Below the pieces are notes generated by a model. That model saw only the letters and a list, made by a program, of their open reading frames with translations, had not been told where the DNA came from and made no database searches. 64,000 bases of DNA from a virus. Every line of letters begins with the position of its first letter. Within the stretch, counting starts at the first letter, position 1. The translations under genes were made by a program, and so were the position numbers. The stretch spans positions 1,050 through 65,049 of IMG/VR virus record IMGVR_UViG_3300015195_000004; one strand, 5' to 3'. Positions 27,600 to 60,100 of the stretch are shown in pieces.

Positions 27600-28040
27600 T
27601 TTCGGAGATAACTTTTCTGGTTAAGAAATTGGCATGGTGCTCGGGTAACGCACCCGTCTGTGGAGATTTGGAGGCTCTACTGATCCTTGATCTCACCATA
27701 TAAGTGCCTCAGGTTACGGCTACTGAAGCTCCCACCAATCGTATCCCTGCAGAGACGGCGGATTACATATTATTTATTTAGTCTCTAATTATGCCTTAGA
27801 GAGGTCAGACGCAGTTCCATCCACAGAATGCTCAGGCTATACTTGCATTGGACCTAAGATATAAATATCCATAGGAGGGGTATACCCAGGAAGCCATCCT
27901 GGCCCATTCACTAGACTTTATTTGTTAGTCTAGCCGACACGTCTACAAGGACGGGTTTCAACTCCCACGGGGTAGAGGAGTGGTGTCTATGAAGCGGCTC
28001 ACAGTTTATCGGAGTCCTTAATAGAAATCCCGTTAACATT
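27600..28040 (-). ncRNA. candidate ~400-nt structured non-coding RNA, class unknown
   Basis: ORF-poor gap with at least six inverted repeats; no family recognised; strand inferred from flanking genes. Confidence 0.35.
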
Positions 28041-28041
28041 T

Positions 28042-29300: not shown

Positions 29301-29329
29301 ATTATACTATTAAATTTTCTACTTGTCAA
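29301..29329 (-). promoter_or_regulatory. perfect sigma70 promoter TTGACA-17-TATAAT inside the late module
   Basis: Direct reading; precedes a 56-aa ORF (MWILILTLLC...). Confidence 0.8.
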
Positions 29330-41539: not shown

Positions 41540-42088
41540 CTATAGAATTTGATAATCATTAGTTAATTCGTTCCATCTAAGTAAGTGACACTTCTTCCCC
41601 ATCTTACCAGCTAGGAAGATTCCGAAGGCTGTTCCTCCAGTCGGAGTTAAGTATTCTGTAGGTCCATAGGGAGTAGCATTGTCTATTACCGAATCCCAGC
41701 CGGGCGCTGCATATACTTCACAACAGTCTGTTATCATCATTAAATTCCTGGCTTGTAATGACTTAGTGCCGAATTTTAGTTTATCCCAAGGTGCCTTTTT
41801 AGTTAATTCAGCATACTCATTCCAATAAGGCTCAGTAAGGGTCCTATATTCTTCGTTAACTACATCATAAGATGCCCCCACAGGTCTAGCCTGTCTTTCA
41901 TAGTTTACCCAGGGGAGATAAAGTACATATTGTCCTATAGTTAATTTACTTACCCAAGCTTGGTCTGCCCCGAGGGCATTGCCTGATAATATACAATTAT
42001 TAGAATCAGCTAGGCTCTTGCCCTTATTAGCCAGTATCTCTACTTGTTCTGGTGAGAGGCACCTTGTACCTATTAGTGCCAGATTCAC
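41540..42088 (-). CDS. SLOG/DprA-like Rossmann protein
   Basis: LIGTR, SGNALGADQAW, YLPW, ARN, GGTAFG motifs. Confidence 0.75.
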   Translation of the reverse strand: MNLALIGTRCLSPEQVEILANKGKSLADSNNCILSGNALGADQAWVSKLTIGQYVLYLPWVNYERQARPVGASYDVVNEEYRTLTEPYWNEYAELTKKAPWDKLKFGTKSLQARNLMMITDCCEVYAAPGWDSVIDNATPYGPTEYLTPTGGTAFGIFLAGKMGKKCHLLRWNELTNDYQIL

Positions 42089-43153
42089 AAGATACCGCAG
42101 TTTTCATGTGTACATAAACATTTATCTAGTCTTGAAAGATCATCAGACATAGAATCAGACTCTTCTTCCAATTCGTCAACACGGGACTCAAGATAGGAAA
42201 TGTATTCCTGTACTTCGTCTAAAGCTTCCGAATACCTATTATCTTTAATTGCAAAAGACTTCATCTTATTTATTGCACTCAAGTAATACAGTATCTTCAA
42301 GACTTTCTGACCACATTAAATCATCAATTTCTAAAAAGAACCCTGCGCCTATAACTGCAACTTGAGAATCTAAATCATAGTCTGCTAGTTCTTTAATCAA
42401 ATCCCTAACTGTCATTTTTCTTCTTTAACCAATCCTTCTACAATTTTATAAATTGACTGTTCAGCATCTTTTATGTTCTTTTGTTCTGTCTCAACTAACT
42501 CATTGTGCATCTTGTTAGTTAAATAGCTACAGATTGCCGAATTATGATCGGAAGACATCTCCATAGTATCCTTGAGGGCGTTTGTAAGGGCCTGAGAGGT
42601 TCTGTACGTACTCAGCAGGTCAAATCCCATTACTGATACTGCAGCCCTTGCTGTAGGGTCCTTAGTGCCCAAATAGACTAATGCTATTAGAGTTTCTACT
42701 AATGATTCGATGCCGTTTGTGTCATATACTTGCTGTCCTGTAGGTAATCTACTTACTATACAAGACATATATACTTTTATTTCATCTGCCTTAGATAATA
42801 CAGGTTCTGCCGGTGCTGCAGAATTAACTACAACCTTTGGGCCATTAATAAATACATCTAAGGCTTGTTTAAAACGACTAAGCATTCTTCCACTTTCTAT
42901 CCCGTTCTTTAATCATCTTGTTTAGTTCTCTATCTGACACTCCTGGCTGAACTACTATTTCCACATAGTAGGGCCGTTCCCAAAACAGAATCCTCGCTGT
43001 ACCTTCGATAAAGCGGGTTCTTCGTTTAAGAGGCTCCGCAAATTCACAACCTCTATTGGGGCAAATACCATTCAAAAGGAGTCTTACCCCACATACACAT
43101 CTTGGTTGGGCTAGGAAGGCTTCTCTTTGAGCCTCAGACCAGTTTCTGCACAT
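42085..43153 (-). CDS. four hypothetical proteins (42085-42300, ~42266-42415, 42412-42885, 42878-43153)
   Basis: ORF track plus manual translation. Confidence 0.55.
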
Positions 43154-43512
43154 TATTAGTGTGATTGCCTATAAATATGTAGTTGGTCATTTAGCACATG
43201 AACAGCATTAGTTAATGATTCAATGGCCTCTACAATTTTATTAGTACAAATTGTTATAGTCTGCGTCTCTTCTGTTTGGTTATGTGGGGCTTTGTTATAA
43301 TCTAACATTTAGGCAGTATGATCCTTGTATCCTTGTTCAATAGCCTGATTCTCAGCTACTTGTGCTGCATCTGCTTTACGAAGCACCCACGCTGCTTTTT
43401 GTGATGCTGCGAGCTTAAGGCGTGATTCTTGGCTCATCTTGTAGCCGATTTTCCGACCCTTTTTCTTAATTTCAACTGTAATACTCATCTTTATTCTTCC
43501 TTTATTTTTTAG

Positions 43513-43703
43513 TGGTGAGAGCCTTTGGCCCCTCGTAGGACTCTCTTGCTACCTGGGCCTCAAAGTCTCCCAGTTTACTATACGGTTCTTATGTAATACG
43601 AATGTGGCTCTTGAGGGATCACAGTTTATTTAGCCTAGTCTGTGTCCTATGGGTATAGTATCGTCATGCCGTCTCTCAGACCCTATCGACCTAACTTAGA
43701 CTA
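43513..43703 (-). ncRNA. candidate promoter-driven structured RNA or leader (~190 nt)
   Basis: Begins just after a perfect promoter; several stems and a possible pseudoknot; last stem ends CUCUC-ACCA. Confidence 0.4.
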
Positions 43704-43707
43704 TGTA

Positions 43708-43736
43708 ATTATATACTATTATTCTACAATTGTCAA
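43708..43736 (-). promoter_or_regulatory. perfect sigma70 promoter TTGACA-17-TATAAT
   Basis: Direct reading. Confidence 0.85.
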
Positions 43737-43739
43737 GCC

Positions 43740-43997
43740 TTAAAAAGGCCAATCTTTAGGTAATGTTGCTTTAAGCTGATTCTGCCATTTTCTATTCTGA
43801 AATAGTGCCGCTATGCACTCCTCAGAGCAGAAGTGAAATTCCGGGGTGCAGTCTAGGTTTTCTGAGCCATAGCCGAAACTGAGGCTAACTGTGTTAAAAT
43901 CAGTAACTATTTGGCACTGATCACAAATAAAGCCAGTTTGTATCCAAGTCTTTTGTAGTTCTGTTCTTATACTCATACAAATGTTCCAATCTCCCAT
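43740..43997 (-). CDS. Cys-rich hypothetical protein
   Basis: CDQC and FCSEEC motifs. Confidence 0.55.
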   Translation of the reverse strand: MGDWNICMSIRTELQKTWIQTGFICDQCQIVTDFNTVSLSFGYGSENLDCTPEFHFCSEECIAALFQNRKWQNQLKATLPKDWPF

Positions 43998-47540: not shown

Positions 47541-48240
47541 TTACTTCTCTAACTCCTCTAAAAACTTCTTGTATATAATAGCTCCGTATGTTCCTACTTC
47601 TGTTATTCCTGCACTTATTAATGTTCCGTTCATTTTTGCAGCTAATGCCGCATTTAGGGCAGCAGACATAAGTTCTGGTATCACTTTGTACTTACTAGGG
47701 AACCTAGCATAATCATTCCATAGATCAAAAGTAGGGTCAGGAACACTAACATCAATTCCCTTAGTGGCTTCTTGGTATGCAGATTCTATACTATTGCATA
47801 ATGCTTGATTATAGTTCTGGGCTTGAGATTTATCAAATCCTCCCCAATAGTTCTCATGAAGCTCAATAGGTATGTGGTTATCGTTCAGAAATTTATAATC
47901 TTCCATATTAGGATTAGCTTGTGACACAACGCACTCTTCACAGGTTTTAGGATCATGAGGATGCAGCATAGTTTCACTTTGATAATCATCAGAGGCCGAA
48001 CTATCGTAGTAGTCTGATTCCCAGTCAGCAATATCCTCATTCACAAACTCTAGTTCATGGTCCTTAAACACGTTCCCTTCTCCAGGAAATGGAGTTAGCA
48101 CTATCCAGCCTGTGGAATCGAATTCCTTAACAGTATATACCTGGTCTGTGGCATAAACATAATCCGATTGTGTTGGAGTTTTAATCCTAACCAAATCTCC
48201 AATTTCAAAAATACTTCTCATCTGGCTCCCTATCATATCT
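47541..48240 (-). CDS. hypothetical protein with SH3-like N-terminus and acidic linker
   Basis: FEIGDLVRIK motif; start uncertain (about 48236). Confidence 0.55.
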
Positions 48241-57100: not shown

Positions 57101-60100
57101 GCGTCATGTTAATTACCTTTCAAGATTTCATGTAGATTAAGGAAGAAAATCGCCATTCCTTCAGTATGTATTACGTAATGTGAGGGATTTTGTATTAGTT
57201 CCAGAATGTCGGCTGAAAGTATCATTTGATGCCCGCGATCGTAATTTCCATATAAAGGTACTCTCTAGTAGGCCATGAGACCTTGCAGGAGTGGAGGATG
57301 TAGTCCTTCCAAGATTTAGATTGTCCTGAGAACCAGTATAAGCTTCTTGAGACTTCCATTTGAATTTCTCCCTTTTCTAGATTATACTCTTATTAAGTAC
57401 AAAATGCAAGCTTTTAAGTAGGGGTATTTGCTTCCTTTACATACTCTTCAAGGAGCCTCGCTTCGCAGGTATTACGATTACAATACGCAGAAATTGTTTG
57501 AGTATTGAAGAAAACTTCCCATACTCCACCCCTCGAACGCATTCCCCAACCACCTTTTACCATGTATTGAAGCTTGGCCGATCTAGAATACTTGCATGTT
57601 ACATAATGCCCGTTTTCTTGATTAATCGGTACTTCACAGTAAACGCATATCCCTTTTTCAAGGTTTTCAGTTTCGCGTTCCTTGTATAGTTCGGTTGGGG
57701 TTTTCATATTCTGTACTCCTCTTTTATATATAATAGCAGAGTATACTTATATCGTCAAGTAGTTAATTGTAAAGAAATTGCCGGAAAAAGAGAAAAGCCT
57801 CTACCGGAACCCCGCTATAACCCAGGGTAAGGGGAGGCTATTAGTTTTGGTACGGTAAACTTTATTGCTTTTATCCTCAAATTAGCAGGAGTTTACTTCC
57901 AGGGGTTAAAATTAGTGCCCTTTTTAAGTACCATCTAGGGCTAAGATGTAAGGAGTCTTTCATCCTCGGTGTATCTATACTATACTACCTTTTTAGTTTA
58001 TTGTCAAGTGTTATTTTAGGGGTTTACGATGTCGTTACGATAGAGAAGAATAAATCCTAGAAATTTCCAATCGGTCCTAAGGACAGGCTTGGCATAGCCT
58101 AAAATGTCGCGCGGTTGGAAAACATACGTTTTCTTAGTGATCATATCAATTCTTCCTTTTCTCCGCATTTATAGCAGAATATATTTTCATAAGATGTTCT
58201 ACAGGAAGGGTGCCGTTTTTAATCATCGGCAGTAGGCGTTGAAATTCTTCGCATGCAGTCATTTTTTGACCTTTTAGTGCCTATGAGACTTTTGCGGGAG
58301 CGGAATACTGATCGGACCTACTCCGGTTTTAGGATTCGCCTTGAAAAACAGTGTAGCGGAAAACTGAGACAATGCGGCCTGAGCATAGGGTACAGGCTCT
58401 TTGCCATTGTACAAATCGTGGTATAGTGGAGGAGTTACCGTTTCATAAAATGCGTTGCCGTTCGTCACTCCATACTCATACCTTGTGTAGCCAATAGTTG
58501 GTTTTGTAGTTAATACTTCTAGAGTGTCTGAAAGTTTCATGTTCTACTCCTTTAATATATAATAACACATAAGAGTATAGAAGTCAAGATCGTTATGTAA
58601 AGAAAAAAGAGAACCGGAGTCCTCTAGTTTCATTCCTTTTTAGTGAACGATACAGAATGGGGAGGGATGTCCTGGTTGGCAAGGGAAGCTTAGGGTTGTG
58701 TGATTTGCCGGAATGGTTCCGGCACTAGGACTACATGCCGATACGGCAAGAAGGGTAAGGATTGTGATTAGTTTATTCATATTTGTACTATACTATATAT
58801 TTTTGCCTTTTTGCAATAGTCAAGAAGGGTCTTGCTTGCTTTAGCCAGGGATTTGAGCAGCAGCGTAAGCTTCCGGGTTAGTTATTTCTTTTTAATGTAT
58901 TTCCAGGAAGATCGGCAGCAGTCTTTGCAATTCTTCGCAGGCAGTCATTATAAATACCTACTTGTCGAAGTGCTTCCGAACCCACTAAAGAGTTTAGCGG
59001 AGAAGCGAGATTTTCCGGCACGGCCTACAAACGACCCTCTATTTCCTCTTAATTCATGGTAAAGATTTACCGCCCTTTCCTCTTGTCCTACTGTGCCGGA
59101 ATTGTGAGGAATGATTAAGTAGTCATTAGGATTATGAGTAGCTAGGATTCTAATTGAAGTTGAAACTTTCATGTCTGTTTCTCCTTAAGTGTTTAGTGCT
59201 TTAATACATAATAACACATGAGAGTATAGGATGTCAAGTGATTAACCCTGTTCTCACAGCAATCATTACAGCATGGGTGCGATTATCAGCACCTAGTTTT
59301 TGAAACATATCGCATAAATGGTTCTTTACCGTTTTTTCGGAAATTCCTAGCATTTTGCCGATTTCGGGATTAGTTCTTCCTTCTGCGAGAATGTCAAGAA
59401 TTTGTGTTTGTCTTTCCGATAAAGCATTAAGGTCTTTAGGTACAAACCTTTTTGCTCTAGCAGTAACAATTTCTGTATAATTCATCAGAATGGTCCCGTA
59501 TAGTGAAGGGCATCAACTGCTAAGAACATTGCTTCCGTCTCGTCAAAAGCTTCTTGTAATTGATCTTCGGTAGAAACTTGTGGCAAAAATCCTAAAAGAT
59601 AGCGTTTATATTCAGGGTTGCCTAAAGATTGGTGGTTGGAGTACATTTTAGAACGCATTCTCATTAAGATATTCGTTTTCCTCGTCTGTGAGGTCTTTAT
59701 AGATTAGGTATCCGTCATTTGATATTACAGTATATCCGGCTTCAAATAATTTGGTTTCCATTTCGGTAGCAATTTCGTATATATTGCCGTTTTCGTCTGG
59801 TTCTGAATACTCCTCAATGCCTTCTGGTACTTCTTGCTCCAGCAACCCGCAGGCATCAAGGATTAAGCAATTTGATAAAAACCTTCCTCTAGAACCATCC
59901 CGCGCGATTATACATTTTGAATCTATAGAAAATTGTAGTCTGTCCTCTTTCTCCTCATCTGTTTCATCTAAAATTTCATTGCAAGTTGTTTCAGATAGAT
60001 TCCCATGATCGGATAGTATATATGCAGAAGGAAAGAAATTCGGTCCTATTGCGTCTAAAACGTCCTTCTTATTGTCATAAAATTTCCCGTTATAGTTCCA

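Follow-up and report, generated by a model that had tools for sequence, protein, structure and literature searches.

What is the stretch of about 190 bases that lies behind a consensus promoter in this phage and encodes no recognizable protein? The window, by which we mean the whole 64,000-nucleotide stretch analyzed, is part of an 88.7-kb IMG/VR virus record with an estimated completeness of 57%. Elsewhere it carries terminase, DprA-like and nucleoside deoxyribosyltransferase-like genes. The genes neighbouring the locus all lie on the minus strand and are packed tightly. A sequence-only reading of the locus had proposed either a stand-alone non-coding RNA with a tRNA-like 3′ end or a regulatory leader. 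The features discussed below are as follows, in the order of transcription.

43740..43997, minus strand: upstream Cys-rich gene, 85 aa (78 aa from the second ATG), ending 3 nt before the promoter
43708..43736, minus strand: sigma-70-type consensus promoter, TTGACA (43736-43731), 17 nt, TATAAT (43713-43708)
43511..43700, minus strand: non-coding insert of about 190 nt, strain-specific, making up most of the 5′ leader; it has no ORF and is absent from the nearest relatives (contigs L022 and L002)
43636..43703, minus strand: 5′-terminal stem-loop predicted by folding, closed by UAGUCU/AGACUA and starting at about +1 of the transcript
43612..43626, minus strand: segment AACUGUGAU-CC-CUCA, for which pairing with 43487-43474, at the start codon, is predicted; inverted repeat I2
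43516..43572, minus strand: long imperfect hairpin predicted by folding (19 pairs, interrupted by internal loops), a candidate processing site; CCA and an A-rich single-stranded tract come after it
43489..43510, minus strand: ribosome-binding region, with AAGGAAG at 43502-43496, 7 nt before the ATG
43309..43488, minus strand: gene for a 59-aa basic protein, ATG at 43488, the first of a tightly packed string of minus-strand genes

"Insert" is used here as a label. Insertion in this phage and deletion in the lineage of L022 are both compatible with the data, the outgroup being in a third state.

The TTGACA-17-TATAAT promoter reported for this locus is present, and it is the sole 12/12 match within 38-50 kb. 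From its position, transcription is expected to start at about 43702/43701. The whole window contains 12 promoter matches with at most one mismatch, compared with 0.71 ± 0.86 expected, and the promoter at 43708 is therefore more than a chance match. Eleven of the 12 lie on the minus strand, in the same orientation as the genes. Behind most of these promoters the next gene follows within about 65 nt. Long leaders were seen behind two intergenic promoters only, those at 43708 (219 nt) and 57979 (271 nt); the match at 47808 sits within a gene. The family spans 29301-60339 and includes four perfect matches, at 29301, 43708, 49984 and 51987. Judging from these motifs, the phage evidently relies on the primary sigma factor of its host across this region.

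At the other long leader, about 170 nt separate a near-consensus promoter (TTGACA-17-TATAGT, 58007-57979, minus strand) from a GC-rich hairpin with a run of U at about 57838-57785 on the same strand. The hairpin resembles an intrinsic terminator, and a second promoter comes after it. The whole-window scan gave no Rfam match in 57785-58007. By its layout, this interval on the minus strand is a better candidate for a stand-alone short transcript than 43511-43700, and the transcript may be an sRNA or carry a 27-aa micro-ORF whose start is at 57963.

The promoter at 43708 is indeed followed by an ORF-free stretch, as had been described, of about 220 nt before the 59-aa gene. The minus strand has no ORF of at least 30 aa from 43739 to 43489, and only six gaps in the 88.7 kb, this one (43489-43739) included, exceed 240 nt. 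The insert has a GC content of 47%, compared with a genome mean of 41% (sd 4.5, 190-nt windows) and with 31-46% in other intergenic gaps at least about as long, all of them below the insert. The raised GC fits a foreign origin or a structural constraint and is proof of neither. Another long ORF-free gap, at 27700-28041 (342 nt, GC 46%), matched nothing in Rfam and is not similar to the insert.

A missed micro-protein or leader peptide would be one explanation for the insert. An in-frame AUG..UAG of six codons does exist (AUG ACG AUA CUA UAC CCA UAG, 43666-43646, 6 aa), and it begins 5-10 nt downstream of a GAGAG stretch. However, a proper SD is absent, no stop-to-stop sense-strand frame within the insert exceeds 28 aa, the longest one lacks a start codon, and there is no comparison sequence. 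We regard such a peptide as very improbable.

Relatives of this phage are scarce: a collection of about 15 billion proteins contains only two other lineages, and the 59-aa protein has two clusters there besides its own. Its homologues are 97% identical (P0001, on L002) and 51% identical (P0012, on L003/L004), and those of the upstream 85-aa protein are 81% identical (P0013, 78 aa, on L022) and 45% identical (P0003, 75 aa, on L003). Searches with the 85-aa protein, the 59-aa protein and TerL, singly and as alignments, yielded no further relatives in the viral or genome contig collections. L022 (3,014 bp) and L002 (3,546 bp) are contigs of the same NCBI assembly, GCA_040383985.1, while L003/L005 and L004 are contigs from two Logan assemblies.

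On L022 the gene order is DUF6899 gene, DUF4406 gene, 78-aa homologue, promoter and 59-aa gene. The promoter reads GGC-TTGACA-17-TATAGT and is followed by ATAGAAAAATAATAAGGAGAAATACATAA-ATG TCA ATT ACA GTA, which gives a leader of about 29 nt. L002 likewise has a TTGACA-17-TATAGT promoter, a leader of about 29 nt and then the 59-aa gene (97% at the amino acid level). Since its upstream DNA and its promoter spacer differ from those of L022, L002 is a second variant. BLAST alignments of the flanks (77-92% identity) end at window position 43710 and resume at 43509. The unmatched block is 43700-43511, or about 190 nt, with borders set by eye. In the transcript it extends from about +2/+3 up to the A-rich ribosome-binding region, and this region (43489..43510) can itself be aligned with the short leader of the relatives. 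Thus L022 and L002 keep the promoter and the 59-aa gene, and the upstream gene is kept on L022. On L003/L004 the gene order is also kept, with a TTGACA-17-TAAAAT promoter directly after the upstream gene, and a 94-aa ORF lies between this promoter and the 59-aa gene. As aligned here, the position of the promoter is conserved and the slot after it varies, being empty, occupied by a 94-aa gene, or filled with 190 non-coding bases.

Conservation in relatives had been named beforehand as the check on the structured RNA, and the nearest relatives lack the whole 190 nt. Because the same gene occurs in these relatives without it, the insert is dispensable, and the 59-aa protein is therefore independent of this RNA. 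The alternative of a regulatory leader fared better in part. A leader is the right anatomical description, and no terminator precedes the 59-aa gene, but it is not a conserved one, as the orthologous loci have either a leader of about 29 nt or the 94-aa ORF. No terminator-like site was found on either strand in 43489-43736. Since there is no terminator and the first base of the insert lies at about +2/+3, the insert would be transcribed as the 5′ leader of an mRNA starting with the 59-aa gene, and not as a separate RNA gene.

The region downstream is variable as well. L002 also lacks window positions 43302-42887, which hold a 50-aa and a 91-aa gene, and 42422-42074. The second of these blocks contains a 49-aa and a 71-aa ORF. 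On L002 the 59-aa gene is directly followed by a 161-aa homologue of the window's 157-aa gene, while in the window further small genes adjoin the 59-aa gene without gaps. By the same comparison, 42887-43302 and 42074-42422 are putative further accessory cassettes of the same operon. At L022:2936-3014 and L002:1-100, the break in both contigs falls at the same promoter. This promoter appears to be a point of recombination between two phage variants that co-exist, and such recombination probably caused the assembly break between L022 and L002.

The locus resembles a moron or accessory cassette in two respects. The insert lies between neighbours that are conserved and is absent from a close relative, and another relative (L003) has a different cargo, the 94-aa ORF, in the same slot. 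Classical phage morons are protein-coding and have their own promoter and terminator (Hendrix-type mosaicism). In contrast, the insert is non-coding, lacks a terminator and is transcribed from the conserved promoter already resident at the locus.

We looked for other copies of the insert. In 50,697 phage records, blastn gave no match with 1.4 kb of the region, nor, at E≤10, with the insert alone. In the phage's own 88.7-kb record there is no second copy, only the region itself matching. Exact-word scans, made with four separate parts of the insert, gave 0 matches among viral contigs (a 22-mer, a 19-mer and a 20-mer from the insert) and 0 among genome contigs (a 23-mer). Among metagenome contigs, a 20-mer scan gave 16 matches with identities of 20-23 nt that did not extend further. 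These matches, all of them regarded as chance identities, fell in 23S rRNA genes, in an unidentified coding context that recurs on three contigs, and in two single contigs. The 21 nt at 43553-43573, UGGGAGACUUUGAGGCCCAGG, are identical to a segment of the 23S rRNA gene in a dozen metagenome contigs. As the identity to 23S rRNA genes does not extend past 21-23 nt, it was taken as chance.

The clean presence/absence polymorphism and the sharp borders would suit a small mobile element, MITE-like or a degenerate intron- or ribozyme-like one, that inserted behind the promoter. However, neither terminal inverted repeats nor a target-site duplication were found at the ends of the insert, which is single-copy in the 88.7-kb record, has no copies in the scanned collections and matches none of the intron or ribozyme families of Rfam. 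This explanation is largely refuted, and we consider it highly improbable.

A functionless leftover of recombination or gene replacement, tolerated in the leader of a hyper-variable slot, is a more serious alternative. An accessory gene that was lost could have left it behind, for instance, or it could be a piece of foreign DNA that was picked up. Such a leftover is consistent with nearest relatives that do without the insert, with the mosaic nature of the slot and of the region downstream (the 94-aa ORF of L003, the two blocks missing from L002), with the absence of significant structure and with homologues that were found nowhere. Several points argue against it. Phages rarely keep 190 useless bases right behind a consensus promoter. 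Decaying non-coding phage DNA is usually AT-rich, whereas the insert exceeds the coding DNA here in GC. The occlusion of the downstream start region described below is unusual in this genome (rank 2 of 90). Finally, neither the DNA of the insert nor its translation (all hits E>0.1) resembles the 94-aa ORF of L003, the relatives or other parts of the genome, and the gene-remnant version was rejected on this ground. All things considered, we find a neutral leftover rather unlikely, though it deserves to be kept in view.

Is the insert a structured RNA? All four complementarities that had been listed are present where they were reported, but they are no more frequent than in shuffled sequences. 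The leader contains 11 perfect stems of 5 bp and 2 of 6 bp, while dinucleotide shuffles contain 11.1 and 2.8. The 218-nt leader has an MFE z-score of -0.47 against shuffles, and the leader folded together with the start of the ORF has -0.76. The 5′ hairpin at 43636..43703 (-13.8 kcal/mol, z -0.24) is no better than in shuffles. 5′-terminal stem-loops can stabilize an mRNA, as in the ompA 5′ UTR. The predicted hairpin is placed like these stabilizers, 1-2 nt from the expected 5′ end, but differs from them in being no more stable than its shuffles.

At the other end of the insert, the best fold of the 3′ 63 nt is a single long imperfect hairpin, 43572-43516, with -24.4 kcal/mol and a z-score of -1.87. 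It is retained in the full-length folds, and 10 of 200 shuffles fold as well. The stems proposed earlier for this part, CUGGG/CCCAG and GAGAG/CUCUC, have -7.1 and -9.3 kcal/mol. Because the long hairpin uses the same bases, it excludes these two stems and hence the pseudoknot that had been built on them. A pairing of the pseudoknot type, in which 6 nt of a hairpin loop are complementary to another part of the sequence, is found in 23% of shuffles.

The ACCA end is present in the sequence, at 43516-43513, but 7% of shuffles also contain a hairpin with NCCA after it. A 7-pair stem, GAGAGUC/GGCUCUC, followed by A-CCA can also be read from the sequence, and it is outcompeted by the better hairpin in the predicted fold. 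In having a 7-bp stem before A-CCA the insert is like a tRNA-like element or an acceptor minihelix ending in NCCA. Unlike these elements, it has no T-arm and no cloverleaf, its 3′ end is defined by no terminator, and ARAGORN and the tRNA, tmRNA and TLS models of Rfam are silent. ARAGORN found 0 tRNA genes in the window at default settings and 0 with thresholds lowered to 70%. The cmscan check that had been suggested was made with Rfam 15 and gave 0 matches at the gathering score in the whole window. For 43300-43900 there were 0 matches even at E≤10, riboswitches, sRNAs, ribozymes, introns and TLS included. With folding at chance level, Rfam and ARAGORN silent and the block missing in the nearest relatives, a conserved structured or tRNA-like RNA was rejected.

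A stand-alone accessory RNA would not have to be conserved. It would be cut next to the 3′ hairpin to about 190 nt, carry the stem and ACCA end and work in trans, for instance as a decoy or in the manner of a tRNA-like minihelix. Transcribed from +1 of a perfect promoter, it would be expected in large amounts. The acceptor-like 7-pair stem, the raised GC and the stable 3′ hairpin, which has an A-rich single-stranded tract after it as in generic RNase E contexts, are all compatible with such an RNA, and non-coding cargo is conceivable in a slot that holds a cargo gene on L003. The evidence on the other side is stronger. There is no terminator, Rfam is empty at E≤10 and ARAGORN at its 70% thresholds, the motifs of stem and end occur at chance level, and the competing hairpin is about 8 kcal/mol better than the two earlier stems together. 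In addition, there is no second copy or homologue that would show selection on the structure. The stand-alone RNA with a tRNA-like end therefore did not hold up as proposed, and we consider an accessory version of it improbable. Still a little less probable is a non-coding RNA "moron", an interchangeable cargo of the slot that would be highly expressed, processed to about 190 nt with a stem-ACCA end, and trans-acting. If true, this RNA could serve, for example, as a decoy for a host enzyme acting on tRNA ends or for an RNA-sensing defence.

The part of the insert most suggestive of a function is the segment at 43626-43612. In the predicted fold, AACUGUGAU..CUCA pairs with UGAG.AUUACAGUU at 43487-43474 in a long-range helix. 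In the 59-aa gene, the latter segment covers codons 2-5 together with the last two bases (UG) of the start codon. From the AUG to +14, the predicted unpaired probability is 0.16, compared with 0.52 ± 0.17 when the insert is dinucleotide-shuffled, and 1% of the shuffles are as low. It is 0.79 without the insert and 0.73 with the native short leader of L002. When the start regions of 90 genes of this phage were folded alike (mean 0.46, sd 0.15), only one was more occluded than that of the 59-aa gene. In the window, AGU stands at codon 2 and GUU at codon 5; L022 and L002 have UCA and GUA there, and UCA is also found at codon 2 in L003. Both AGU and GUU favour the helix, and the codons of the relatives raise the unpaired probability to 0.46. 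As a post hoc thermodynamic prediction on a single genome, where no covariation test is possible, this occlusion is a modest hint that the insert has a function.

Our preferred reading, held tentatively and a little short of probable, is that the insert is an accessory cis-acting leader, occupying a variable slot behind a conserved strong promoter and damping translation of the 59-aa protein. Occlusion, processing and a regulatory effect are what we infer from the predicted folds. In this model, 43626-43612 would fold back on the AUG and codons 2-5, and translation would be damped. The hairpin 43572-43516, which would be nested within that helix, and the A-rich tract would be plausible sites for RNase III or RNase E. 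Processing there would release the block on the start of the 59-aa gene. Against a cis function, overall folding resembles that of shuffles, as given above, the energy of the duplex between insert and start region is unremarkable (p~0.1), and the SD is predicted to be accessible (about 0.7 unpaired).

A leader of this kind would work by analogy with that of lambda N (pL-nutL-N), where structure limits N translation and RNase III cleavage of the leader hairpin relieves it. RNase III sites are also present in the T7 early region. The locus is like these systems in its strong early-type promoter, its leader of about 200 nt, its imperfect hairpin of about 19 bp and its gene for a small basic protein, and, as in lambda N, the leader is predicted to occlude the start region. 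Unlike lambda N, there is no sequence similarity, and the relatives keep the 59-aa protein without the leader, so leader and protein are not a co-evolved pair. We suggest a likeness in mode of action and do not claim membership in that system.

The small basic ORF of 59 aa downstream of the leader, noted earlier as a possible partner, is present. Its NUMOD3-like label was not borne out, with no Pfam match at E≤1, PF07460 included, and the protein belongs to no Pfam or PHROG family. In the ESM-Atlas it has a neighbour labelled NUMOD3 with a sub-threshold score of 0.81, a score that shuffled proteins reach a third of the time, and PF07460 is found on 14% of that neighbour's members. As the protein is conserved in relatives without the leader, a dedicated protein-leader pair is unlikely.

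Overall, the locus is a case of ordinary phage mosaicism in which the cargo, being non-coding, is slightly unusual. Because it is a dispensable and unconserved leader, 43511-43700 should not be catalogued as a new RNA family. The slot, empty in some relatives, filled with a 94-aa gene in others and with non-coding DNA here, offers a natural three-way comparison of how a promoter-proximal insert affects the expression of an operon.
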